The notes: generated by a model from the letters alone, not told the origin. Positions 833 to 15,288 are shown, counted from the first letter of the stretch. The stretch is DNA of 64,000 nt from a virus (IMGVR_UViG_3300021335_000004), one strand, 5' to 3'. Numbers and translations: made by a program.

Positions 833-861
833 TTGACAGATAATCAACATTTTTGTATACT
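833..861 (+). promoter_or_regulatory. sigma70-type promoter (rightward; likely drives the bS21/tmRNA operon)
   Basis: TTGACA-17 bp-TATACT. Confidence 0.8.
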
Positions 862-1395: not shown

Positions 1396-1716
1396 GTGAC
1401 AGATACTTTAAAAAGCAGTATACAAAAAGATTCTGAAGGATTTCATATACTGGTTGAAACAGAGGACATAAATTTTTCTGAATTTAAGAAAGCTAAAATA
1501 TTGTATTATATAGTAGAAATACACAGCATGAAATCAAGTGATATAGGAATCATGGCTGACGAAATAGATGGTGTTCAACACCCTATTAAATTTGATTCTT
1601 ATTCAAAAGCTAAAGTGTCTGCTTCTAAACTACAAGAACAATTAGGAGAAGAATCTCACTGGTTTACTAAGATTATTTCAAAAGAAAAAGATATTGTTTC
1701 GTCTGAGGAGCAGTAG
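1396..1716 (+). CDS. hypothetical protein (3' end overlaps tmRNA acceptor piece)
   Basis: 106 aa ORF, GTG start right after rpsU. Confidence 0.6.
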   Translation: MTDTLKSSIQKDSEGFHILVETEDINFSEFKKAKILYYIVEIHSMKSSDIGIMADEIDGVQHPIKFDSYSKAKVSASKLQEQLGEESHWFTKIISKEKDIVSSEEQ

Positions 1717-1772
1717 AATAAACGGACTGGACGCGGGGGCAGTACCCGCCGCCTCCACCATAAGGACACTAA

Positions 1773-1961
1773 ATGGAAATTATTTGGCATATACTATTAA
1801 CAGCTTGTATGAATTCTGAGTGTAGAACTCAAGATGTTCAGTGGTTTGATAATAAAAACACGTGTGAAGCAACAAAAAAACTTTACGAAGAGATTCCTCT
1901 AGATGGAAATTGGACAAGTGTTAAGTATATTTGTAAACCAAAAGGCTCAGTGTCTTTATGA
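1773..1961 (+). CDS. small 4-Cys protein encoded inside the tmRNA intervening segment
   Basis: 62 aa ORF with TAAGGA SD immediately after CCA, hydrophobic N-terminus, 4 Cys; stop ends 2 nt before tmRNA G1. Confidence 0.7.
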   Translation: MEIIWHILLTACMNSECRTQDVQWFDNKNTCEATKKLYEEIPLDGNWTSVKYICKPKGSVSL

Positions 1962-2082
1962 TGGGGGCGAAATAGGATCGACAGACGTAGTAAAAACTAA
2001 ACCGAGAAACAGGTGCGCAAGCGACCTTAACCGCAAGAAAACAACAATTGCAAATGATAATTTCGCAATCGAGGATTACCGC

Positions 2083-2132
2083 TTAGCGGCATAATCTCAC
2101 GGGGCGGCCACTGCCTAGCAACAGAAAGTGGC
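2083..2132 (+). repeat. direct repeat copy 1 (tmRNA tag end LAA-stop plus 3' structure)
   Basis: ttagcggcataatctcacggggcggccactgcctagcaacagaaagtggc. Confidence 0.9.
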
Positions 2133-2151
2133 ATTTTTAAAGGAGGTACAA

Positions 2152-3228
2152 ATGGCGCCAAGAAATCATAAGTCCTGGTTAACAAAACCAAAAGTAGAAG
2201 CTATTAGTAGTGAAATTTATAATAGTTTTGATATTTACAAGCAAGAACAAGAAGATATTTTTTCAAAAGTTTGGGTTCCTGTTTGTCATATGTCAGAGAT
2301 GCCAAATGAAGGCAACTTCAGAACATCATCCATTGCTGGAGTTTCCATTATTGTTTATAATTTCAAGGATGAAGAAGTTAGAGCGTATAAGAACTATGAT
2401 ATTAAACAGGTATCTGGTACTTTTGCTGCTCCTATAGTAACTTCAGAACCTAGGTTACATTGTGAAGTAAAACATGGCGGTATGGTATGGGTAACACTAG
2501 ATCCTAATCCTACACAGAGTGTTGAAGAATGGACAGCAGGAGCTTTTGATTGTATTGCTGATGCTATTGACACAGAAGAAATGGAAGTATTCCATTATCA
2601 CAAAGCTGTGATTGATACAAACTATAAACTGTGGCATGATACTAACTCAGAGTTCTACCACGATTTTATGCATTATTTTAATAGAGTGTCAGGATTTAAT
2701 GATGAATATTTCGCTAGAAAGAATATTCCTTTTGATAATGGTCACGTTAATGTGTCTAGCTTTACTGTTAACTATGAAGAGTATGACGGATTTGAAGATC
2801 GCGGGGAACTATCTTTTCCCAATCTGCCGCCCAACCAGTGGTACATGGTCGATCTCTTCCCAGGATATAACTTCAACCTTCGTGGTTCCGCCTATCGTTC
2901 AGACTCAGTAACGCCTCTTGGACCTAATAAGGTGCTTATTGAATTTAGAGGATATGGATTAAAGAAAGATACACCAGAAGAAAGACAAACAAGAATCAAA
3001 CACCACAACTCTATTTGGGGACCCTTCGGTCGCAACCTACATGAAGACCTTATTGGTGTTGCTGGTCAAGGTACTACAATGAGAGAGGGTACCGAATCTA
3101 GGAACATTCTACACGGACGTCATGAAAACAGTACAATTCATGACGAAGTTGGCATGCGTCATTATTATGCAGAATGGAGCAAGTGGATGGGGTTAGATGC
3201 GAGTAGGCCATGTCAATTAGCGGCATAG
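2152..3228 (+). CDS. ring-hydroxylating oxygenase alpha-subunit-like protein lacking the Rieske cluster; C-terminal LAA
   Basis: AGGAGG SD before ATG 2152; 'EQEDIFSKVWVPVCHMSEMPNEGNF' N-terminus and 'NYKLWHDTNSEFYHDFMH...EDL' mononuclear-Fe motif; no CxH...CxxH. Confidence 0.85.
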   Translation: MAPRNHKSWLTKPKVEAISSEIYNSFDIYKQEQEDIFSKVWVPVCHMSEMPNEGNFRTSSIAGVSIIVYNFKDEEVRAYKNYDIKQVSGTFAAPIVTSEPRLHCEVKHGGMVWVTLDPNPTQSVEEWTAGAFDCIADAIDTEEMEVFHYHKAVIDTNYKLWHDTNSEFYHDFMHYFNRVSGFNDEYFARKNIPFDNGHVNVSSFTVNYEEYDGFEDRGELSFPNLPPNQWYMVDLFPGYNFNLRGSAYRSDSVTPLGPNKVLIEFRGYGLKKDTPEERQTRIKHHNSIWGPFGRNLHEDLIGVAGQGTTMREGTESRNILHGRHENSTIHDEVGMRHYYAEWSKWMGLDASRPCQLAA

Positions 3229-3265
3229 TCTCACGGGGCGGGTACTGCCTAGCAACAGAAGTACC
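3217..3265 (+). repeat. direct repeat copy 2 of the tmRNA 3' segment
   Basis: ttagcggcatagtctcacggggcgggtactgcctagcaacagaagtacc; stem ggtact/agtacc replaces gccact/agtggc. Confidence 0.9.
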
Positions 3266-3329
3266 ACTAACCTTAAGTCCCGCTAACTAGCTGGACTTTT
3301 TATATGAAATACAAGAGAGAATCAAAACA

Positions 3330-3662
3330 ATGAAAAAACTATTAATTGCAGCGATAGTTGCAACACCCTTATCTGCGTTTGCAGAAGATAACATTACAAA
3401 AACTATTGGAATTGAAAAAGCATTAGAATCAGAAATTACTACAGGATATTTTGATACAACTGGTACTTGGGGTTCTATCAGTAGTACTATAGGACTAAAC
3501 TGGGAAGACACAGCCGCTGATCAACTTAACATGAATTTTTCTAGTGTAGAATTAGATATAGATTATTCTTTTGATGGAGCAATTACTATTTATGCCGACA
3601 ATGATTGGGATGATGATTTTAAACACACAGAAACTACTGTTGGAGCAAAATTTAAGTTTTAA
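3330..3662 (+). CDS. putative small outer-membrane beta-strand protein
   Basis: signal peptide MKKLLIAAIVATPLSAFA; alternating beta strands; C-terminal ...GAKFKF (BAM-type terminal Phe). Confidence 0.7.
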   Translation: MKKLLIAAIVATPLSAFAEDNITKTIGIEKALESEITTGYFDTTGTWGSISSTIGLNWEDTAADQLNMNFSSVELDIDYSFDGAITIYADNDWDDDFKHTETTVGAKFKF

Positions 3663-3684
3663 GCACAAATTCTAAAAACAACGT

Positions 3685-3715
3685 AAAAAGGGAGGGTTAC
3701 ACCTCCCTTTTTTTT
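3685..3715 (+). terminator. rho-independent terminator
   Basis: aaaaagggagg-gttaca-cctccc followed by a T8 run. Confidence 0.85.
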
Positions 3716-3794: not shown

Positions 3795-4535
3795 ATGATT
3801 AAACAAAAAGACACAAAAGAATATTCCGAAGTTACTTTACCTATAATTTCTCAATTAAATAATTTTTTTTCCGCGTGGGAAAAAGAAACAGAAGAGTTTA
3901 ACAAAATTTGGGATGATTGGTTTTTAGAACAATCTATTAAGGCACATGCAGATTATGATGGAGAATGGGCGGGATCTGGTACTTTAGACTATAATGAGGC
4001 CAGAATTATATACACGTTACTTAAAAAACTAAAACCACAAAGAGTATTAGAAATAGGGGTAGCTCAAGGTGTTAGTGGAAGCTTAATTAGAGAATCTCTT
4101 CCTATAGATTCTCACTTTGATGGAATAGATATGAAATTACCTCATAATATATGTGACAAGTATAAAGAATATCTAGAAAGCGATCAGATAAATTTTTATA
4201 AAGGTGACGCCATAGAGTTTGTTAAAGAGACTATGGAGAACTATGATTTAATCTTTGTTGATGCAGACCATAGAGAAACTTTTTGTACTGAGATTGCTAA
4301 AATAATCAAACAAAAACACCCAAAAGCTACTATAGTATATCATGAATGGTCTTTTTCCGTAAACGCGGAGGAAGAAGAACTAAAATATATTTCTAGACCA
4401 GAATGGATAAAACAATTTTGGGAAAGAAAAGCTTTTGAAGATGAATATATAGAAAATAATTATAAACACTTTGGCTTTTATGGAAGCTGTGGACTAGGAG
4501 TAGTAATAAATGAAAATTTACTTTCGATGCTGTGA
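3795..4535 (+). CDS. class I SAM-dependent methyltransferase (Methyltransf_24-like)
   Basis: 'RVLEIGVAQGVSG' motif I and 'YDLIFVDADH'. Confidence 0.8.
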   Translation: MIKQKDTKEYSEVTLPIISQLNNFFSAWEKETEEFNKIWDDWFLEQSIKAHADYDGEWAGSGTLDYNEARIIYTLLKKLKPQRVLEIGVAQGVSGSLIRESLPIDSHFDGIDMKLPHNICDKYKEYLESDQINFYKGDAIEFVKETMENYDLIFVDADHRETFCTEIAKIIKQKHPKATIVYHEWSFSVNAEEEELKYISRPEWIKQFWERKAFEDEYIENNYKHFGFYGSCGLGVVINENLLSML

Positions 4536-5217
4536 AAAACAAGAAACAGTAAGCGGTGTTAATCGTTGGGAAGAAATTCCTAAATGGAAAACTGTTCGTA
4601 AATGTTGGAAATCAATTTATGAAGGTATTGACGAATCTGATGAGGTATTTATTTTACATGATGAAGTAACACAAGAAACATTAGATTTTATTGAAGAACA
4701 TTCTTACGAAAATACTACTTTTTTAGAAATTCCTAAACACCATATACAAGACAGATTGCATACATTTAAAATGCTAGAATTTTTAAAAACCCAACTAGAT
4801 ACGAGCAATCCTGAAGAAGTTCATTATATCGTAGAAGATGATTATCTACATACCCCAGACGCTATTTCAGCAATGAAACTTATTTTTACAAAGTGGAATA
4901 ACTTTGTTACTACATACGACTATCCTGATAGATATACTATGGATAAAACTCCATGTTTTTTAATGGTTGATACAGATAGACATTGGAGAACTAACCCTTC
5001 AGGTACTTATACTTTTGCAGCCAAAACAAAAACCTGGTTAGAATGTTGGGATATAATTAACAACACTGCTCCTCATAACCCTACAAAAGAAATGTTTCAA
5101 ACTCATCCGTGTATTTCTCCTGTACCAGGGTGTTCTTCTCATTTAACCCCTCATCATTTAAGTCCTGTAATAGATTGGGACGCTTTATGGAATAATATTA
5201 ATATCAATGCATCTTAA
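4510..5217 (+). CDS. putative glycosyltransferase (GT-A fold)
   Basis: 'YIVEDDYLH' DxD-type motif; cluster context. Confidence 0.65.
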   Translation: MKIYFRCCEKQETVSGVNRWEEIPKWKTVRKCWKSIYEGIDESDEVFILHDEVTQETLDFIEEHSYENTTFLEIPKHHIQDRLHTFKMLEFLKTQLDTSNPEEVHYIVEDDYLHTPDAISAMKLIFTKWNNFVTTYDYPDRYTMDKTPCFLMVDTDRHWRTNPSGTYTFAAKTKTWLECWDIINNTAPHNPTKEMFQTHPCISPVPGCSSHLTPHHLSPVIDWDALWNNININAS

Positions 5218-6079
5218 CCAGCAAGATCTTCACAATAATATAGAGAAAGTTGAACACGTTATTTATGGACCTTGGGTAGGAGAATTAGGCTGGGAGTTAT
5301 TCGGCTGTCAGGGTTATTTAAGAAAATTAAGAGAAGATTATACACATATAAAATCATTTCACATAATTAGCAGAACGGGAAGAAGTTTTTTATACGAGGA
5401 TTTCTGCGATTCATATATCGAATACGATTGTCCAGGTCATAACATTACAGGAGCACTTTGTCTAGATTGGAAGCCGGATAAACAAATAATTCCTTCTGTA
5501 ACTAAATCTTTAGGCTTAGATAATTATTTATATATACCTACTCAACACTTCTTAGTTGATTATCATGCTGCAGGACCTGGAAGAGAAGAAAGACTAGAAA
5601 AGTTTCTAGGATCTCAAAAGTTTATTAAATATGAAAATAATAATATTGAAGATAAACCTTTTGATATATTAATTCATGCTAGACACAGCTTTCACCACAA
5701 CACAGGAGAAAAGAATTGGCCTATAGAAAAATGGAATACTGTGTGTAACTATCTAAAGAATAAAGGATACAGTTTAGCTGCTATAGGAAGTAAAGAAGGA
5801 GCCCATTTACCAGAAGAGTGTGAAGACCTTAGAAATATTGATTTAGAAAATGTGGTCTCATACTTAAACTATAGCAAAATGTTAGTATCTTGTTGCAGTG
5901 GGCCCGCACACCTAGCTTCTTTATGTGGTACACCTTTAGTTGTATTAACTAATAAAGCTAATATTGATAGATATAAAACAGACTGGAATCCTTTTAATAC
6001 TCCTAGAGAGATTATTTATGAAGAAGGATATAACCCAAAAACAGAAACAGTATTAAATAGAATAGAAAATCTATTATGA
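5207..6079 (+). CDS. GT9-like (heptosyltransferase-like) glycosyltransferase
   Basis: 'KNWPIEKW' and 'SGPAHLASLCGTPLVVL' GT9 motifs. Confidence 0.7.
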   Translation: MHLNQQDLHNNIEKVEHVIYGPWVGELGWELFGCQGYLRKLREDYTHIKSFHIISRTGRSFLYEDFCDSYIEYDCPGHNITGALCLDWKPDKQIIPSVTKSLGLDNYLYIPTQHFLVDYHAAGPGREERLEKFLGSQKFIKYENNNIEDKPFDILIHARHSFHHNTGEKNWPIEKWNTVCNYLKNKGYSLAAIGSKEGAHLPEECEDLRNIDLENVVSYLNYSKMLVSCCSGPAHLASLCGTPLVVLTNKANIDRYKTDWNPFNTPREIIYEEGYNPKTETVLNRIENLL

Positions 6080-6924
6080 AAAAAGTTTTATATGTTGGGG
6101 TTTTTAGCGAACACTCAACAAATGTTTGGCAGGCAGAAGCTCTTGATAAAATATGTGACCTAACTACCTTTGATATGCGAGATATAGGAAATTATACATA
6201 CACACAAAGAGATAATGCTATTATAAACATCATTAAAAAAGACACTCCTGATTTACTATTAATTAGTAAAGGAAACACAATAAATATAGATGTTATTAAA
6301 AAAGCAAAAGAATATTGTAAAGTTGCTTGTTGGTATATGGATCCTTTAGTAAATGCAGATAGTGAATGGATGGAAAAAGTTAAACACAGTGATTATATTT
6401 TTTCAGCTTATGAACACTTAGCAAATATATTTAGAGAAACTAATAAAAATAGTTTTTATATTCAAGAAGGTTTTCATAAACCAATTCATAGACTTATGAA
6501 GATAGAAAAACAATATGATGTAAGTTTTTTAGGATGGTTAAAAGATCAAAGACAAGGTTATTGGAAAGAATTAAAATTTTCTAATTTTAATGATAAATAT
6601 AGTTTTGAACACACAAAAATAGTAGCACAGAGTAAAATAAATTTAGGATTTACTACAAATAATGAAGGTACTTCTGATAGGACATATAAAATTTTAGCAG
6701 CAGGAGGATTTTTATTAACAGAGCCTTGGAAATATATGGAAAACGATTGGGATGTAGGAAAAGATTTCGTTTGTTTTAGTTCTATTAGTGATTTAAAAGA
6801 CAAGATAGGTTATTATTTAAAAAATCAAAAAGAAAGACACGAAATAGCAGAACAAGGAAGAAAAAAAGTACAAAGATTTAGTACTGATAATTGGGCAAAA
6901 AACATAGTAAAGTCAATAATATGA
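6076..6924 (+). CDS. glycosyltransferase (CgeB/Glyco_trans_1_2-like)
   Basis: 'SKINLGF...SDRTYKILAAGGFLLTE...ERHEIAEQGRKKV'. Confidence 0.75.
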   Translation: MKKVLYVGVFSEHSTNVWQAEALDKICDLTTFDMRDIGNYTYTQRDNAIINIIKKDTPDLLLISKGNTINIDVIKKAKEYCKVACWYMDPLVNADSEWMEKVKHSDYIFSAYEHLANIFRETNKNSFYIQEGFHKPIHRLMKIEKQYDVSFLGWLKDQRQGYWKELKFSNFNDKYSFEHTKIVAQSKINLGFTTNNEGTSDRTYKILAAGGFLLTEPWKYMENDWDVGKDFVCFSSISDLKDKIGYYLKNQKERHEIAEQGRKKVQRFSTDNWAKNIVKSII

Positions 6925-7739
6925 AGATATTAATTACAGGACATAAAGGTTTTATAGGACAAAACTTATATAAAACTTTAGAAAAAGACCACGATCTTTA
7001 TACCTATGAATGGTATCCTTATGAGTATCCCGAAGTACATGGATACGACTGGGTTATTCATTTAGGTGCTATTTCTAGTACTACTGAAAAAGATGTAAAT
7101 AAAGTAATGTTACAAAACTATGAATTTTCTCAGTGGTTATTTGATGAGTGCAATAAAAAGAATGTAAATCTTCAATATTCTTCTAGTGCTAGTGTATACG
7201 GTACTAATACTAATTTTAAAGAAGACGCCCCTAAACAACCACAATCCCCATATGCTTGGAGTAAATATTTATTTGATAGGTGGGTTACAAAACAACCAAA
7301 AAATATTATTGTTCAAGGTTTTAGATATTTTAATGTATACGGACCTAATGAAGATCATAAAGGAAATCAAGCGAGTCCTTATACAAAATTTATAGAACAA
7401 GCTAAAACAGAAAAAAGCGTAACTATATTTAAAAATTCGGATAAATATAAAAGAGATTTTGTATGTGTTGAAGATGTTTGCAAGGTACACAAGCAAATGC
7501 TAAAAGTAAAAGAGAATGATATATATAATGTAGGTACAGGAACCGCTACTAGTTTTTATGAAGTAGCAAGTGCAATTGCTGAAAAGTATAAAGTCAAAAT
7601 TTACGAAATCGAGATGCCTAATAATTTAAAAGGACAATATCAAGAATTTACTAAAGCAAACTTAGATAAACTTAACAAACACCTAAATATTGAGTGGGTA
7701 AATATTCTAGACTATATAAAGAAAGATTATAATGAGTAA
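6921..7739 (+). CDS. hldD: ADP-L-glycero-D-manno-heptose 6-epimerase-like NAD-dependent epimerase
   Basis: 'ITGHKGFIG', 'HLGAISSTTE', 'SSSASVYG', 'YAWSK', 'GFRYFNVYGPNEDHKG..AS', 'YQEFTKA'. Confidence 0.85.
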   Translation: MKILITGHKGFIGQNLYKTLEKDHDLYTYEWYPYEYPEVHGYDWVIHLGAISSTTEKDVNKVMLQNYEFSQWLFDECNKKNVNLQYSSSASVYGTNTNFKEDAPKQPQSPYAWSKYLFDRWVTKQPKNIIVQGFRYFNVYGPNEDHKGNQASPYTKFIEQAKTEKSVTIFKNSDKYKRDFVCVEDVCKVHKQMLKVKENDIYNVGTGTATSFYEVASAIAEKYKVKIYEIEMPNNLKGQYQEFTKANLDKLNKHLNIEWVNILDYIKKDYNE

Positions 7740-8466
7740 AGTTTTATTAATAGGAGATAGTTGTACAGATATTTATCACTATGGTACTATAGATAGAATT
7801 AGTCCAGAAGCACCCATACCGGTTTTATTAACAAAAAACTTATTAACATGCCCTGGGATGGCTGCAAATGTAAATAATAATCTTAAAGCTTTTAACATAG
7901 ACACTGATTTTATTACTAATGAAGAACCTATAACAAAAACTAGATTTTTAGATATTAAAACTGGACAACATCTGCTAAGAGTTGATAAAGAAAAGACGTT
8001 AAAAGAAATTAATGAATTACCAAAACTAGATAAATATACTGCAATAGTTATTAGTGATTATAATAAAGGTTTCTTATCTTATAATCATATAGAGCAAATT
8101 ATTAATACTTCTAAAGTACCGGTATTTATTGATACTAAAAAGCGAGATTTAAAAAGGTTTAAGAACGCAATAGTAAAGATTAATGAACGAGAATTTAAAA
8201 ATAGAACAAGTGATTGTGATGATATCATTGTTACTTTAGGGTCTAATGGGGTTTTATATAAAGATAATATTATACCAGCACCTAAAGTAGAAGTATTTGA
8301 TGTTTGTGGGGCTGGAGATACCTTCTTATCTGCTTTAGTATGTAAATACATAAATTCAAAAGATATGATAGCATCAATAAATTTTGCAAATAAAGCAGCA
8401 GCAATTACTGTACAGCACAGCGGTGTTTATAGTTTAACAAAAAAGGATTTAATCAATATATCATGA
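7732..8466 (+). CDS. hldA: D-glycero-D-manno-heptose-7-phosphate kinase (RfaE domain I, PfkB family)
   Basis: 'RISPEAPIPV', 'ISDYNKG', 'DVCGAGDTF'. Confidence 0.85.
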   Translation: MSKVLLIGDSCTDIYHYGTIDRISPEAPIPVLLTKNLLTCPGMAANVNNNLKAFNIDTDFITNEEPITKTRFLDIKTGQHLLRVDKEKTLKEINELPKLDKYTAIVISDYNKGFLSYNHIEQIINTSKVPVFIDTKKRDLKRFKNAIVKINEREFKNRTSDCDDIIVTLGSNGVLYKDNIIPAPKVEVFDVCGAGDTFLSALVCKYINSKDMIASINFANKAAAITVQHSGVYSLTKKDLINIS

Positions 8467-9227
8467 GTAAAACATTGTTTTTATTTTGGCACGGACTTGG
8501 GGATAACATTCTAGCAACACCTGCTATTAAAAAATACAAAGAATCTACAGGAAACTATGTAGGGTGGATGATGCTTGATCGTTTTAAACCTGCAAAGCTT
8601 TTTGATAATAATCCTTATGTCGATCAAATTCATTGGAGTGTAGATGCTTGGCATGTAGCAGGTTTTGATAGAATACAAGAGGGGTCTGTGATAGCGATTA
8701 ATAATGCTAAAAAAGAAGCTTTAGAGCATGGTTATGATGAATTAATTGTGGTAGACCACTCAAGTAGTAGAAAACATAAAATATATAGAACAGCGGATGA
8801 AATGGAAGTTACTTTAGAAAAAAACGAAATTCATACAGAGTGTTACTTTGAAGAAGATGTTTCTCAATGGTATGAAGAAACAGGTATTAAGTTACCCAAC
8901 GAGTTTATTTTCTTTTCTGGAAATACCGGACTAGAAAGAAAAAATTTAAATAAATCGTATATTCAAAAGTGGGAACAAGAAAATAATTTAGATCTTCCAG
9001 TTATATCCCCTGATTGGACGTGGGATATTAAAAAAATCCCTATGTCATTTGCTGCTGATATAATGAAAAAAGCAACATATAGAATATTGGCTGATTCTGC
9101 GTTATACCACGTAGCTCACGCTTTAGATCTTGATGTTGATATAGCTTATTTTCAAAGAGGACAAGAAGTCTGGGATGTAGTAAAACCATTACACTTTAAT
9201 TATGAAAAGGTTATTTATAATGCTTGA
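8463..9227 (+). CDS. GT9-like glycosyltransferase
   Basis: 'GLGDNILATPAIK', 'NNPYVDQI', 'DSALYHVAHAL'. Confidence 0.7.
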   Translation: MSKTLFLFWHGLGDNILATPAIKKYKESTGNYVGWMMLDRFKPAKLFDNNPYVDQIHWSVDAWHVAGFDRIQEGSVIAINNAKKEALEHGYDELIVVDHSSSRKHKIYRTADEMEVTLEKNEIHTECYFEEDVSQWYEETGIKLPNEFIFFSGNTGLERKNLNKSYIQKWEQENNLDLPVISPDWTWDIKKIPMSFAADIMKKATYRILADSALYHVAHALDLDVDIAYFQRGQEVWDVVKPLHFNYEKVIYNA

Positions 9228-9840
9228 AAAACCACCGTTTGTCAACGATCATTGGTTAGATATACGTCATGTCTCTATAGTAGATGCATTACCTGTATAT
9301 GAAACAAAAAAAGAAGTTCTTAATGTTGGTTGCGGAGTACCGCAGTTAGATCAATATTTAGCAGATATAGGTTGGGATGTTACTCCAACTGATTATATTC
9401 CAGAACGTAGTAAATACCCAGAGTTCGAAGAGAGAATGAAAGCTCGTGGAATTACATTGAAAGTAGTAAATACAAACATATTTGATCTTTCAACTTTTCC
9501 AAAAAATTCTTATGAGTGTGTGATATGCTCTGAAGTATTAGAACATTTAGTAGATTATAAAAAAGCTTTTGAAAATTTACTACAACTAACTGAACGAAGA
9601 CTAATTTTAACATTTCCTTGGGCGCGTTCTTTTATGGATGCTGCACCCCCGCCAAAAGGACATTGTAACTTTTGGAATGATGACGGAACAGCGGGCTATA
9701 AAAATGTACACGAACTAGTAGAAATGGCAAGACCATATGCGACTTCTGTGCAAAAAATTAGAACAAAACCAAAAGATGTAGAATTAAATCAACTAGATTA
9801 TTTAATTATAGTTGATAAACAACAAGCATGGAATGTGTAG
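9220..9840 (+). CDS. class I SAM-dependent methyltransferase
   Basis: 'VLNVGCG', 'YECVICSEVLEHL'. Confidence 0.8.
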   Translation: MLEKPPFVNDHWLDIRHVSIVDALPVYETKKEVLNVGCGVPQLDQYLADIGWDVTPTDYIPERSKYPEFEERMKARGITLKVVNTNIFDLSTFPKNSYECVICSEVLEHLVDYKKAFENLLQLTERRLILTFPWARSFMDAAPPPKGHCNFWNDDGTAGYKNVHELVEMARPYATSVQKIRTKPKDVELNQLDYLIIVDKQQAWNV

Positions 9841-9857
9841 TATAAGGAAAAATAAAA

Positions 9858-10577
9858 ATGGAAATTATTCAACATCAATTATTAGGTAAATTACATTTTC
9901 CAAAGTCAGCTGTTGGCGATATGAGGTATATTAGCTCTTTCAAAGAAACACCGCCATACTATGAAACTTTTAATTTATTTAAAGATTATATTACACAAGA
10001 TAGTGTCTTTTTTGATATTGGTGCCCATTTTGGTTGTATATCACTTCAATATTTAAAATTATTAGAGGAAAAAAAGATAACAGCTGAAGTATGCGCTTTT
10101 GAAGTTAATCCAGTGGTTTATGATTGCTTATCTAAAAATTTGTTAGCAAACCACGGAAACTATAACAACAAAGTTAAGTGTTATAATAAAGCTGTGTCTT
10201 ATTCAGATAATGAAAAAATTAGCTATAATATTCCTGCACCCTTAACAGGATTTACATGGGATAGTTATGGTTCTTTTGGAATTGAAAATGGAGGCCCAAG
10301 AACAGATCAATTTATTGATATAGAAACCCTATCTATTGATAATTTAAATAAAAAAGTAGACATTGTTAAAATTGATGTAGAAGGCTATGAAAAAAATGTT
10401 CTTTTAGGGATGAAAAAAACAATTATGAATTATAAACCAGTGATAGTAATCGAACTTAATCACAATTCCGAAAAAGATAAAAGTTTTATTCTAAATTTTT
10501 TTAAGGAATTAGGTTATTCTATTAAAAAAGAAAATGGAAAAGATGATTATCTTTTTACATATGATACAGAAGGGTAA
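9858..10577 (+). CDS. FkbM-family methyltransferase
   Basis: 'FDIGAHFG', 'KIDVEGYE', 'KPVIVIE'. Confidence 0.85.
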   Translation: MEIIQHQLLGKLHFPKSAVGDMRYISSFKETPPYYETFNLFKDYITQDSVFFDIGAHFGCISLQYLKLLEEKKITAEVCAFEVNPVVYDCLSKNLLANHGNYNNKVKCYNKAVSYSDNEKISYNIPAPLTGFTWDSYGSFGIENGGPRTDQFIDIETLSIDNLNKKVDIVKIDVEGYEKNVLLGMKKTIMNYKPVIVIELNHNSEKDKSFILNFFKELGYSIKKENGKDDYLFTYDTEG

Positions 10578-10582
10578 TAAAA

Positions 10583-11194
10583 ATGGAAGAGTATTTAAAA
10601 AGCGGTACAGAAAAATTTCTACAACTAGTAGGTGATATAGATGTATTCATAGACTGTGGAGTAGGCATAAAAGGAAGCGAAGCGTGGACAATAAACAGGC
10701 TTCGTCCTGATTGTGAAATTATCGGATTTGAACCAGAGCATAGAAGGTTTGATGAATTATCTAAAATTTTTCCAGGAGAGCTTATAAAACTAGCTATCGC
10801 AGAAAATGATGGTACAATAGAAGGATTTATGGGGCACGAAAAAGGTAAAGCTGATTTTTGGTTAATTGCGGGAGAAAATGCTCCGGCAGGTTCCTATATA
10901 AAAGAAGAAGTTAAATGTACTAGACTAGATACTTTTATAAATGATAGAGGGCTACAAGATAAAAAAATTGCAGTATGGGCAGACATAGAAGGAAGCGAAC
11001 TCATAATGCTAAGAAGTTGCGGAATATTTTTAGATTCTATCGTAGGGTTTAATTTAGAGATGCACCCTGATCATATTCAAGAACAGAAATCATATACCCG
11101 TCAAGAAGTAACTGACTACTTAGAACAGAAAAACTATATAAAATATCATAACTATGGTAGTGACTTTGCCTTTATAAATAGGAAATACCAATGA
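10583..11194 (+). CDS. FkbM-like methyltransferase
   Basis: 'FIDCGVG', 'GFEPE', 'RLD', 'DIEGSEL'. Confidence 0.7.
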   Translation: MEEYLKSGTEKFLQLVGDIDVFIDCGVGIKGSEAWTINRLRPDCEIIGFEPEHRRFDELSKIFPGELIKLAIAENDGTIEGFMGHEKGKADFWLIAGENAPAGSYIKEEVKCTRLDTFINDRGLQDKKIAVWADIEGSELIMLRSCGIFLDSIVGFNLEMHPDHIQEQKSYTRQEVTDYLEQKNYIKYHNYGSDFAFINRKYQ

Positions 11195-12195
11195 AAGTTT
11201 TTGTTACAGGGGTCGGAGGATTCTTAGGACACCATATCGCAGTTCGTATGCACGAATTAGGATGGAAAGTAGCAGGTAATGATACTTTTATAGGAGGAGA
11301 AGAAGATAATGTTCCTTCTTTTGTAGATTTTACTCTAAGTGATTGTTGTGATTTTAAAGCGATGAAAAATGCAATGGAAGGTTGTGATTTAGTTTATCAC
11401 TGTGCTGCAACAGCACACGAAGGATTATCTGTATTTTCTCCTTCATTTATTACTCGTAATATATTTGAAGCCTCTGTCACTACTTTTTCTGCAGCAATTG
11501 CTGCAAAAGTAAATCGTATAGTGTTTTGCACATCAATGGCGAGATATGGAGAGCAGAAACCTCCTTTTACCGAAAATATGAAACCGTCACCAGTAGATCC
11601 TTATGGGATAGCTAAGGTAGCCGCAGAAGATGTTTTAAAAGTATTAGGAAAAGTTCATAACATAGAGTGGAATATAGCAGTACCTCATAATATAGTAGGA
11701 GAATATCAAAAATATGATGATCCCTTTAGAAATGTAATGAGTATTATGTTAAATAGAAATCTTCAAGGTAAGCCTTCTATTATTTATGGTGATGGAGAGC
11801 AAACACGTTGTTTTTCTTATGTAGATGATTGTGTACAGTGTTTAGAAAAAATGGGCACACAAGAAAATATTGTATATGAAACTATAAATATCGGTCCGGA
11901 CGAAGAATCAATCACTATTAAAGAACTAGCCGAATTTTGTGCAAACGAAACAGGATTAAATCAAGACCCAATTTATTATACGCAAGGAAGACCACAAGAA
12001 GTAAAACACGCTACTTGTTCTTCTGATAAAGCAAGAAAACTATTAGGGTATAAAACAACTACTACGGTTGAAGAATCGGTAACAAAGACAGCAAATTGGA
12101 TTAGAGAAAAAGGTACAAAACCTTTTAAGTATCATTTACCTTTAGAAATTGTAAATGAAAAAACTCCTAAAACTTGGACAGAAAAGAGATTTTAA
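11191..12195 (+). CDS. NAD-dependent nucleotide-sugar epimerase/dehydratase
   Basis: 'VTGVGGFLG', 'YGIAK', 'GDGEQTRCFSYVDD'. Confidence 0.88.
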   Translation: MKVFVTGVGGFLGHHIAVRMHELGWKVAGNDTFIGGEEDNVPSFVDFTLSDCCDFKAMKNAMEGCDLVYHCAATAHEGLSVFSPSFITRNIFEASVTTFSAAIAAKVNRIVFCTSMARYGEQKPPFTENMKPSPVDPYGIAKVAAEDVLKVLGKVHNIEWNIAVPHNIVGEYQKYDDPFRNVMSIMLNRNLQGKPSIIYGDGEQTRCFSYVDDCVQCLEKMGTQENIVYETINIGPDEESITIKELAEFCANETGLNQDPIYYTQGRPQEVKHATCSSDKARKLLGYKTTTTVEESVTKTANWIREKGTKPFKYHLPLEIVNEKTPKTWTEKRF

Positions 12196-12347
12196 TGTTA
12201 TCTAGTAGTGAGTGGTCATCATTAATGGTTCTTAGATCTGAATTAGAAGATTTAAAAATACGAAATATACACCCAAACAAAGAAACTAAAATTGTTATTA
12301 ACTGGTTAGAAAACAAAGTTACAGAACTAGAAAAGAGAAAGCCTTAA
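12195..12347 (+). CDS. small hypothetical protein
   Basis: 50 aa ORF coupled by TAATG overlaps at both ends. Confidence 0.55.
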   Translation: MLSSSEWSSLMVLRSELEDLKIRNIHPNKETKIVINWLENKVTELEKRKP

Positions 12348-13081
12348 TGTTTACTATTATTACTCCATATGTGTTTGATGAAGAGATTGCAGAATTTAAA
12401 AATAAGCTACCGTGGGGAGTTCCTGCACTTTTAGAAAAAGATACAAACAAAATAGGCCCAGATTTAATGTATCAAAAGTTATGGAATTCGTGCGATACAG
12501 ATATTTTTATTATGCATGCAGATATGGCTCCTCACGAAGACGCAGAGGATTGGGATGAAAAACTATTAGAATATGTAGAAAAATACCCAGAAGCAGGAAT
12601 ACTAGGATTAAAATTGATATATCCTGGATCTCATAATAATAAGCAAGTTATTGAGTGTGCTGGCGGTAAATTTACAGATAATAAACCGGACCACTATGGG
12701 TCTGGGTTAGAATTATTTAGTGGTCATAAATGGAAAGAACTGGAATATGATGAAGGCCAGTATGATAAAGTACGAGAAGTTGCTTGGTATACTTTTGGAG
12801 GTATTTATATTAGAAGAGAGTTACTAAATAGAGTAGGAGACTTTGATCCTAGATATATTTGGAGTTATAACAGAGATGTTGATTACTGTTTAGAAGCTAG
12901 AAAAGCTGGTTGGAGAATATATCAATTACCTATTCCAATGTATCATTTTCAAAGTAAGGATGTAAAAAGAATTAAAACACAAGAAAATGCTGACGCAGAG
13001 TTGCATAATCTTAATGTTTTACAAAATAAATGGGCAAACAGTCCTTTTTATAGTACTGTAGATAGGGTAGCAAAAAAATGA
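12347..13081 (+). CDS. GT2-family glycosyltransferase
   Basis: 'IMHADM', 'VGDFD...DVDYCLEARKAGW'. Confidence 0.8.
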   Translation: MFTIITPYVFDEEIAEFKNKLPWGVPALLEKDTNKIGPDLMYQKLWNSCDTDIFIMHADMAPHEDAEDWDEKLLEYVEKYPEAGILGLKLIYPGSHNNKQVIECAGGKFTDNKPDHYGSGLELFSGHKWKELEYDEGQYDKVREVAWYTFGGIYIRRELLNRVGDFDPRYIWSYNRDVDYCLEARKAGWRIYQLPIPMYHFQSKDVKRIKTQENADAELHNLNVLQNKWANSPFYSTVDRVAKK

Positions 13082-13323
13082 AGTCTAAATTAGTAAACTA
13101 TGAACAACTTGAAGAAATGTTTAAAAAGCACGATGTAGACAATAAGATGTCTAGCACAATATCATCCCAAGTTTTTGAAAAACTATTTGTAGTAGTAACA
13201 ACTATTCTTATAGTCTTAGTAGGAATATCTTTGTTTATAATTATGTTTCCCTTTTTTATAGTAGAAGCACTTTTAATAGGAATTTATAGAGGAATAAAAA
13301 ATGCAAAAAAAATCAGCGATTAG
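13078..13323 (+). CDS. small membrane protein
   Basis: long hydrophobic stretch. Confidence 0.6.
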   Translation: MKSKLVNYEQLEEMFKKHDVDNKMSSTISSQVFEKLFVVVTTILIVLVGISLFIIMFPFFIVEALLIGIYRGIKNAKKISD

Positions 13324-14137
13324 TTTAATTAGTTACGACGCAGAGTATTTACCTGCAAGTATTATGTCATATTATGCTTATGTAGACGAGATTGTGTTAG
13401 GATTAGATAAAAATAGAAAAACTTGGGCAGGCAATAGTTTTAGCTTCGATGAACAAGATTTGTTTAAAAAACTATCTGTAATTGATGGAGATAATAAAAT
13501 TACTGTTGTTGAAGAAGATTTTTATAAGTCTGATGTCTTTATTAATAACGATAATTATGAAAGAAATTATTTAAAAAGTCATTGTTCACATGATTGGTTA
13601 TTTAGTTTTGACGCAGATGAAGAATTATTAAACGCTAATCATTTTTTTGAAAGCTATTTACCTCTTGTAGAGCCTTACTATAAAGATTATGATTTAGCTT
13701 TTAATTGGTTTTTACCTTATAAAGAGTTTGAAGATAGTTATTTAGTAATTACAGATGAGAGAGGTAATTGGAATTTACAAGAAACTCAAGGATTTGCTAA
13801 TTGGAAAAACTATGAATTTGTTTATGCTCGTTGGACTAATAATGCTCAAGGAGCAAAAAGAGTACTTGCAACCCCTCTAGCTATTTTACATTGGAGTATT
13901 TGTAGAAAAGAGAAAGAGTTAAATCAAAAAATTCATAATATAGGTCATGCAGATATTGTTGATGAAGATCCATTCTATGATATTTGGAGAAATATCAATC
14001 TGGGTAACTTTAATGAATTACGTAATTTTAAAACTTCAGGATTCGGTGATCCATCTCAGTGGTCGAGACTTACACAGATTTCAAAAGAAGAATTTAGAAA
14101 AAAAGCAGTAGAACAAGCAAATATGATTGGAATTTAA
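13301..14137 (+). CDS. GT2-like glycosyltransferase
   Basis: 'YVDEIVL', 'DWLFSFDADE'. Confidence 0.7.
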   Translation: MQKKSAISLISYDAEYLPASIMSYYAYVDEIVLGLDKNRKTWAGNSFSFDEQDLFKKLSVIDGDNKITVVEEDFYKSDVFINNDNYERNYLKSHCSHDWLFSFDADEELLNANHFFESYLPLVEPYYKDYDLAFNWFLPYKEFEDSYLVITDERGNWNLQETQGFANWKNYEFVYARWTNNAQGAKRVLATPLAILHWSICRKEKELNQKIHNIGHADIVDEDPFYDIWRNINLGNFNELRNFKTSGFGDPSQWSRLTQISKEEFRKKAVEQANMIGI

Positions 14138-14139
14138 AG

Positions 14140-15288
14140 ATGAGAAAAGTAGAAATAATTGGTAAATTTTTTGATAACCACAGTCTTGCTATCATTAATA
14201 GAAAACTTGCAATTGGTTTATCAGAAGTAGATAATATAGAGGTATTTATTAATCCTCTAGACCAGTATGATCCACAATACAATGTGTCTAGCACTGATTT
14301 AAAGGCACTAAAAAAGTTAATGAAAAATATAGATGAAGAACCAGATATTCAAATTAGACATACTTATCCTCCAATATGGAAATGGCCTGTTTCTGATAAA
14401 ACAAAAGTATTTCAAATTCAGCCTTGGGAATATAGAAAACTGCCTTTTGAATGGCAATATAAGTTTGAGACTTTTGTAGATAAAGTTATTACCCCTTCTA
14501 ATTGGACTGCAAACATATATAAAGATGCAGGACTAAGACCTAATAAGGTAGAAGTAATTCCAAACGGTTATGATACAAAACATTTTAATACTAAAAATAA
14601 AAATTTAAATGATAAATACACATTTGTCTTTGTTGGAAATGCTCAGTGGAGAAAAGGTTTAGATATTTTACTACAGATATGGAGTCAAGTGTTTAAAAAA
14701 GAAGATAATGCAAAATTAATTATTAAAGACAACCCTGCTGTTTATGGTGATTATAAAATTGTACCTCAAATTCTTAAATTACAGTACGATACTGGTTGTG
14801 CTGAGATTGAATATAATGACAAACAAATGAGCGAGATTGATATGAGTCGCATGTTTAAATCTAGTCATACAGTAGTACATCCTTATAGAGGAGAAGGTTT
14901 TGGTATGCATATTCAAGAAGCTATGGCTTGTGGTTGTTTCCCTTTAGTAACAGGAGACGGTCCTACAGATGAATTTGTTAAAGATGATCTTTGTAGAATT
15001 CCTCCTAAATATGTAACTGTAAAAGCAGATGATCCTAAAGTTATGATGATGAAACCAGGGGATGCTTTAACAACAATGGGAGGGCACGCTATTGCTACAG
15101 AACCTGATATTCAAGATTTAGCAGGTAAAATGAGAGCGTGTTATGATAGAAATATAACAGGTAGAGATTATTCAAAAGATTTATTTACTTGGGAAGATAT
15201 AGTAGAACGCTACGCCGCGTTAATCAACTCCGTTGATATGGACGAACCTACTGCCAGAATTTTGGCGCAAGGGTGGCGTACTACTTGA
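14140..15288 (+). CDS. GT4-family glycosyltransferase
   Basis: 'RKGLDILL', 'PYRGEGFGMHIQEAMACG'. Confidence 0.85.
   Translation: MRKVEIIGKFFDNHSLAIINRKLAIGLSEVDNIEVFINPLDQYDPQYNVSSTDLKALKKLMKNIDEEPDIQIRHTYPPIWKWPVSDKTKVFQIQPWEYRKLPFEWQYKFETFVDKVITPSNWTANIYKDAGLRPNKVEVIPNGYDTKHFNTKNKNLNDKYTFVFVGNAQWRKGLDILLQIWSQVFKKEDNAKLIIKDNPAVYGDYKIVPQILKLQYDTGCAEIEYNDKQMSEIDMSRMFKSSHTVVHPYRGEGFGMHIQEAMACGCFPLVTGDGPTDEFVKDDLCRIPPKYVTVKADDPKVMMMKPGDALTTMGGHAIATEPDIQDLAGKMRACYDRNITGRDYSKDLFTWEDIVERYAALINSVDMDEPTARILAQGWRTT

Follow-up and report, generated by a model that had tools for sequence, protein, structure and literature searches.

The window analyzed here is a 64,000-nucleotide stretch of viral DNA (IMGVR_UViG_3300021335_000004) from the AT-rich genome of a marine myophage, which encodes an NAD-dependent DNA ligase, a class I ribonucleotide reductase, an SbcC-like protein, tail proteins, and the ribosomal protein bS21. 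From this gene content, the source genome looks like that of a lytic T4-like marine myophage. A complete, two-piece, permuted tmRNA gene of the alpha type lies at 1659-2135 (Rfam: RF01849, 104.1 bits against a threshold of 50; RF04321, 105.1 bits against a threshold of 47); ARAGORN missed it on the window, although Rfam detects it. As the permuted class requires, the acceptor piece with the T-arm (1696-1760, plus strand; ...GCCTCCACCA), assigned from the sequence and Rfam, is upstream of the coding piece, and its 3′ end is ...CCTCCACCA at position 1760. The coding piece (1963-2135, plus strand), assigned in the same way, carries a tag ORF at 2050-2094 that reads ANDNFAIEDYRLAA and stop, and the tag thus ends in AA plus the stop codon, as is characteristic of the class. 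The two pieces are separated by an intervening segment of 202 nt (1761-1962, plus strand; ORF calling and Rfam) with a 62-aa ORF (1773-1961), which is also present in two related contigs, L003 and L004. This ORF, situated in the segment that is removed on processing, contains Cys. The intervening segments of other related phage tmRNAs (L085, L086, L087, L089, and L006) hold other small ORFs that are unrelated, and in L002 and L172 the two pieces are separated by no more than a spacer of ~30 nt, compared to 202 nt in the window.

A promoter-like site, TTGACA-17-TATACT, is located at 833-861 (plus strand) and agrees with the consensus at 11 of 12 positions; this consensus match suggests that the site probably drives a unit consisting of ORF83, bS21, ORF106, the tmRNA, and the oxygenase gene described below. 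The phage-encoded bS21 gene itself (1197-1394; PF01165, 1.7e-13) lies downstream of the site and is apparently co-transcribed with the tmRNA. A PHROGs search gave no match for the 62-aa ORF, ORF106, the oxygenase, or the small gene110 further downstream. Two-piece tmRNAs have already been described on phages, namely Melnitz and the pelagimyophages (Buchholz et al. 2022, PMC9004378), to which the present locus is similar in having an alpha-type permuted ssrA gene in a T4-like marine phage within an early-looking transcription unit. Unlike those tmRNA loci, the window shows no glutamine riboswitch by Rfam and possesses a partial second tmRNA 3′ end 1.1 kb downstream of the first. A permissive Rfam scan of 1600-3400 likewise revealed no riboswitch, and no family was assigned to this second end.

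Directly 3′ of the tmRNA gene, on the plus strand at 2152-3228, is a gene for a 358-aa, MsmA-like oxygenase alpha subunit without a Rieske center (Pfam and homology), which ends in CQLAA and stop. This agrees with the first-pass annotation, in which a gene placed directly 3′ of the phage ssrA was said to encode a protein with an ssrA-like LAA end. The protein is 74% identical to gp61 of the SAR116 phage HMO-2011 and 75-78% identical to Rieske-less copies of 362-364 aa encoded on long contigs of SAR116 and Puniceispirillum. Pfam matches the catalytic domain PF00848 at residues 142-347 (1.5e-7, 32 bits, cut-off 24.9); of the Rieske domain, just the beginning is matched (profile positions 2-41 of 88). 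The 362-aa forms of phages and SAR116 lack the Rieske [2Fe-2S] ligands, CxH...CxxH, which the cellular MsmA proteins of 409-423 aa possess. The absence of this motif from the virome, SAR116, and HMO-2011 proteins has already been published (Henriques and De Marco 2015, PMC4433239), and the window protein resembles HMO-2011 gp61 and the SAR116 Rieske-less MsmA in that the catalytic domain is kept without CxH...CxxH (Kang et al. 2013; PMC4433239). A PDB sequence search with the oxygenase matched the N-terminal 65 residues only, to Rieske oxygenases, and an AlphaFold2 model built from a shallow, 32-sequence alignment was of poor quality, with a mean pLDDT of 46.5. On HMO-type contigs (L008, L009, and L031), a conserved Cys/His-rich ORF of ~50 aa, ...SxCHVxxTEHxFxNPDxxCFCV..., begins a few bases from the oxygenase stop; its product may be a small redox protein that partners the Rieske-less enzyme.

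The first-pass annotation had further noted that the ~50-nt end of the tmRNA recurs at 3217-3265, and this recurrence was borne out. The segment 2083-2126 is repeated at 3217-3260 over 44 nt with 3 mismatches (93% identity), and the repeat reaches about 50 nt when the 3′ arm of a hairpin is included (to 2132 and 3265, respectively); two such repeat matches occurred in none of 100 shuffles of the sequence. Copy 1 (2083-2132, plus strand) is the true tmRNA 3′ end, comprising the LAA codons, TAA, and hairpin h1, GCCACT/AGTGGC (2107-2132), and is followed by ATTTTT and then by the oxygenase ribosome-binding site. Copy 2 (3217-3265, plus strand) is a tmRNA 3′ fragment of another allele with hairpin h2, GGTACT/AGTACC (3241-3265), and it overlaps the final three codons and the stop of the oxygenase gene (...RPCQLAA and stop), as had been claimed. 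Hairpins h1 and h2 differ by two double changes, each of which preserves base pairs. Copy 2 alone matched no Rfam family even at E≤1, and its predicted folding is no better than that of shuffled sequence. Downstream of it, a hairpin with a T-run (3275-3301, plus strand), found directly 3′ of the tmRNA in L124, L216, and L003, is predicted to terminate the oxygenase transcript. The earlier statement that the oxygenase mRNA ends in a tmRNA-derived sequence is supported, and the message would also include the terminator found 3′ of the tmRNA in sister phages. Next comes gene110 (3330-3662, plus strand), which encodes a small, secreted-looking protein with a signal-peptide-like N-terminus and is the gene after the tmRNA in related phages; only one relative was found in IMG/VR by peptide patterns. 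A strong intrinsic terminator (3685-3712, plus strand) lies 3′ of gene110. The run of methyltransferase and glycosyltransferase genes at 3795-15288 (PF01596; GT9 in L215) is common to the window-type phages and to the two groups of relatives described next.

Two simpler gene orders are found among the relatives. In the first order, P1 (L004, L005, L115, and L214), a tmRNA with h1 is followed by the ribosome-binding site and the oxygenase gene in a layout identical to that of the window, with no second tmRNA tail. The P1 oxygenase ends in CQLAA and stop, for which the DNA is TTAGCAGCGTAG or TTAGCGGCGTAG. Downstream lies DNA with homology to the small Cys-rich ORF of the HMO-type contigs, and next a methyltransferase gene. 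The ATG of this Cys/His-rich ORF is lost in the P1 phages, of which L004 and L214 retain a remnant, and the ORF is gone from the window. In the second order, P2 (L124 and L216), there is no oxygenase gene, and the tmRNA is followed by ACTAACC, a terminator, gene110, a further terminator, and the methyltransferase gene. P2 is the older order, because a distant relative, the 173-kb contig L088, already has it, with a gene110 product 35% identical. For the same reason, we rejected the possibility that a loss of the DNA between the repeats had turned the window order into P2. P1, in turn, cannot be derived from the window order, since it retains the original downstream partner ORF of the oxygenase, which is absent in the window.

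Comparison with these relatives indicates that the window is a mosaic. Positions 1621-3228 are 96.4% identical to L004, and positions 3217-3700 are 98.3% identical to, and colinear with, the stretch of L003 that runs from a working, predicted tmRNA end through gene110. The alignment locates the switch from the L004-like to the L003-like sequence within TTAGCGGC(A/G)TA(A/G). The corresponding joint, TTAGCGGCATAG (3217-3228, plus strand), consists of 12 nt that, bar one or two bases, are common to the native oxygenase end and to the tmRNA tag end; base 9 agrees with the tmRNA and base 12 with the oxygenase. The joint is real, because it recurs exactly in five independent assemblies (L215, L217, L218, L219, and L220; JGI, Logan, and ENA) and because its overlap of 8-12 nt is far below the assembler k-mer; an assembly chimera was rejected on these two grounds. 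L003 is a differently joined recombinant, in which a tmRNA with h2, a terminator, and gene110 are followed by AAAAGGGAGG joined to ATTACCGC and then by a tmRNA tail with h1 and the oxygenase gene. The L003 joint has a 4-nt overlap, GAGG, in the first arm of the gene110 terminator, and its extra tmRNA tail lies upstream of the oxygenase rather than being fused to the oxygenase end. In both recombinants, h1 travels with the oxygenase and the terminator segment with gene110, and both cargo genes are carried.

From the comparisons made here, we consider it very likely that copy 2 is a recombination scar, left in the variable region downstream of the tmRNA when two related marine phages underwent an uneven crossover. 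This region would vary in gene content, with the P1 and P2 orders both in circulation. The oxygenase gene would have been acquired from the HMO-2011/SAR116-type family of Rieske-less MsmA with its ...QLAA end (TTAGCGGCGTAG) already in place, and the chance likeness of this end to the nearly identical tmRNA tag end (TTAGCGGCATAA) would have enabled the joint. A single uneven crossover at the 8-12 shared nucleotides could then have linked the left part of a P1 phage, up to the oxygenase end, to the right part of a P2 phage with h2, from the tag end onward. The product would be tmRNA with h1, oxygenase, tmRNA tail with h2 plus terminator, and gene110, carrying both cargo genes and leaving the protein sequence unchanged. 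L003 would likewise have arisen from one uneven crossover between P1 and P2 phages. Copy 2 would accordingly be a passenger, now forming the 3′ UTR of the oxygenase message and, with its terminator, the end of it. We infer all three elements of this account, namely the crossover itself, its direction, and the absence of a role for copy 2 beyond transcript ending. To account for the bases of the joint TTAGCGGCATAG, one must further suppose that the tmRNA parent had a TAG stop, that a heteroduplex was repaired, or that a mutation followed; tmRNA alleles with a TAG stop exist, for example in L132 and L002. Among the contigs collected, a P2 genome with h2 and without the oxygenase was not found, h2 being situated beside gene110 only in L003 apart from the window, and a metagenome scan for h2 plus the terminator gave no match.

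T4-type phages reportedly show comparable behavior, in that cassettes flanked by PeSL elements are said by Arbiol et al. (in 2010) to undergo modular shuffling and illegitimate recombination in variable regions. The present locus is similar in the swapping of cargo between co-infecting relatives beside conserved anchors, in its short-repeat joints, and in its mosaic gene orders. It differs in that the anchor and repeat are a tmRNA tail and the shared sequence is a coincidence between the LAA-stop of a protein and the LAA-stop of a tag. The mechanism proposed here would be an ordinary one, illegitimate recombination of co-infecting phages in a variable region. The locus would still offer a clear natural example of it, since environmental assemblies yield both parental orders, a pair of recombinants joined in different ways, and the exact joint.

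Two direct copies around one gene could likewise have arisen within a single genome, if the oxygenase gene had been inserted into a P2-type tmRNA tail with a target duplication of ~50 nt and the copies had then diverged. The older age of the P2 order fits such a duplication, but we regard it as very unlikely. Two paired double changes distinguish the copies, yet the flanks are 96-99% identical to relatives, and both hairpin variants are separate working (predicted) alleles. Moreover, P1 cannot have come from the window order, as it retains the original downstream ORF that the window lacks.

The hairpins deserve separate comment because the pair-preserving changes between the two copies had been taken as a sign that the RNA structure is maintained in both. 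The compensatory changes are indeed present, as two pair-preserving doubles; the second part of the claim is not supported, as both alleles pre-existed and the changes do not show selection on copy 2 in place. Hairpins h1 and h2, together with at least five further pair-preserving variants, were found in working (predicted) tmRNAs of related phages. Since both variants are already the 3′ ends of such tmRNAs elsewhere, their differences predate the duplication. The covariation is therefore best read, from these comparisons, as a reflection of functional tmRNA evolution before the crossover, and it is uninformative on selection at the present site of copy 2.

The insert is bordered on each side by a direct repeat of the tmRNA 3′ end (44 nt, 93% identical), an arrangement that also brings to mind site-specific integration at ssrA, in which a small mobile element enters the tmRNA 3′ end and brings its own copy of the tail. 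From the work of K. P. Williams on tmRNA-gene integration, direct tmRNA 3′ repeats flanking foreign DNA are said to be the classic footprint of an ssrA integrase, and the window resembles bacterial ssrA genomic islands and prophages in having such repeats around foreign DNA. Integration at host ssrA has also been mentioned in the literature (PMC9004378). The window repeat differs from that of the bacterial islands in that it lies in a phage genome with no integrase, derives from the coding-piece end of a permuted gene, consists of two different alleles, and has its right joint on sequence shared between the tmRNA and the oxygenase cargo gene. No integrase is encoded in or beside the 1.1-kb insert, of which the oxygenase is the sole ORF, and the genome looks like that of a lytic T4-like marine myophage. 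At the left border there is no att-like joint, h1 leading straight into the oxygenase ribosome-binding site as it does in P1. Taken together, these features make integration an exceedingly improbable origin of the repeat.

The first-pass annotation had proposed that the oxygenase gained its LAA ending by fusion to the tmRNA. This part of the proposal fails, because the ending is widespread where no tmRNA is near. LAA ends 59 of the 81 complete viral-contig homologues, a further 8 end in V/M/I/K-AA and 3 in LVA, and no tmRNA-like DNA was found downstream of the oxygenase genes on these 81 viral contigs. The viral homologues use every one of the six Leu and four Ala codons and each of the three stops, and the residues before the tail differ in sequence and length (CQ, WQ, PA, KA, QP, ES, and others). 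Among 120 protein-cluster representatives, LAA is the end of 79, without a tmRNA nearby, and AA the end of 97. Homologues unlinked to tmRNA, ending in LAA with the same downstream sequence, had been named in advance as evidence against the fusion; those found do end in LAA, with differing codons and downstream DNA. A tree of 80 proteins shows LAA across every major phage clade, the sole loss being in a subclade with a ...PY end. The closest relatives of the window (L004/L005 and L214) already end in CQLAA and stop without copy 2.

The cellular relatives trace the tail further back. In a comparison set of genome contigs (L221-L300), AAE is the end of 56 of the 58 cellular, Rieske-bearing MsmA proteins (409-423 aa) and of 17 of the 22 Rieske-less loci on genome or MAG contigs, mostly SAR116, whereas most phage copies are without the final Glu and end in LAA. 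The C-terminus of HMO-2011 gp61 is ...LVEKAA, and the tails of distant Rieske oxygenases are unrelated. Because the cellular relatives share AAE, the oxygenase tail is an old feature of the family. As judged from the sequences compared, LAA is native to the oxygenase family and not donated by the tmRNA, and the phage LAA is the old family x-A-A-E tail minus its final Glu. The tempting story of a degron donated by the tmRNA is thereby removed, and a different question is raised, that is, why the phage copies of a very abundant marine auxiliary gene mostly end in LAA and the cellular copies in AAE.

The free C-terminal LAA (...RPCQLAA) is nevertheless present, as in LAA-class ClpXP C-terminal degrons. 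Natural ClpX substrates with LAA-like C-termini, known as C-motif 1, were reportedly described by Flynn et al. in 2003. The oxygenase shares the free ...LAA C-terminus with the ssrA tag and these substrates but differs in that its tail would descend from the conserved AAE motif of an enzyme family. Derived from that motif, the tail may have a structural role instead of acting as a protease signal.

At least four separate clades of the oxygenase include genes situated no more than about 2 kb from a permuted tmRNA, with three gene orders represented. The tmRNA precedes the oxygenase in the window group with L006 and, separately, in L043; the oxygenase precedes the tmRNA in the L075 group (L075/L076/L082); and 1.7 kb separates the oxygenase from a following tmRNA in the L063 group (L063/L066/L068/L079/L080). 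None of these other tmRNA-linked groups (L006, L043, L063, and L075) has a duplicated tmRNA tail. These loci bear on the suggestion that the window holds a dedicated, tmRNA-based capture and expression cassette, in which cargo is placed between two 3′ copies and fused to the ssrA degron, giving a short-lived protein or a ClpXP decoy. The repeat does bracket a single gene and overlap its LAA-stop, a second bracketed gene exists in L172, with its stop codon equal to the tag stop, and the proximity of oxygenase to tmRNA in at least four clades is in the same direction. However, the LAA ending is older than any tmRNA link, the other tmRNA-linked oxygenase genes do without a second copy, and the extra tail of L003 is upstream of the oxygenase and unfused to its end. 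The insert also contains no recombinase, and the parents and a differently joined recombinant suffice without special machinery. A dedicated cassette is thus highly improbable.

A metagenome scan with a 17-nt loop motif detected a second copy in only 1 of the 80 loci listed; more than 50 of these loci are clear tmRNAs, and chance matches are among the rest. The L172 cargo, at 9272-9763 on the minus strand of that locus, is an HNH endonuclease gene encoding 120 aa (phrog_2255, 5e-32 by PHROGs); Pfam gave nothing for this ORF at E≤0.001, and the HNH identity came from PHROGs. The gene is flanked by a tmRNA tail of donor type on one side and the tail of the recipient itself on the other, and its stop codon coincides with the former tag stop. 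Compared with L002, the tag has been replaced by the donor allele from about the fourth codon onward. From this arrangement, the HNH protein is probably a free-standing homing endonuclease that targets the phage tmRNA gene, and the event looks like intronless homing combined with an uneven joint. The case may indicate that joints form readily around the end of the tag. The window duplicate might by analogy have been left by a nuclease cut near the tmRNA tag followed by uneven repair copying of donor sequence, for which L172, with its HNH gene between donor-type and recipient tails and its co-converted tag, is a ready precedent. We give this origin a very slight probability for the window, where no endonuclease gene is present in or beside the insert and the shared sequence alone accounts for the joint.

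The uneven crossover between P1 and P2 phages leaves one main point uncovered. Three joints are located around the end of the tag, and in two of these cases, the window and L172, the position is precisely that of the tag stop codon. Such clustering exceeds what would be expected if illegitimate recombination were fully random. A more far-reaching reading, which we hold to be doubtful, combines two propositions: the tag-stop bases would be a preferred joint for the gain of cargo, and the Glu-less LAA of the phage MsmA clade would be a true ClpXP/ClpAP degron. If this were true, the conserved tmRNA would be a landing pad for cargo genes in marine myophages, and the LAA degron would limit the lifetime of an auxiliary enzyme or compete with ssrA-tagged proteins during infection. 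The clustering also raises the question of whether the 3′ flank of the phage tmRNA recruits cargo, homing endonucleases included, more often than other conserved anchors.

A minor observation concerns pairing between the two ends of the locus. In the acceptor piece, the T-arm and loop (GGCAGTACCCGCC, 1738-1750) form a perfect complement to thirteen nucleotides of copy 2 (GGCGGGTACTGCC, 3237-3249); the corresponding complementarity of copy 1 is lower. This match may be due to chance or may be a relic of tertiary pairing within the tmRNA.
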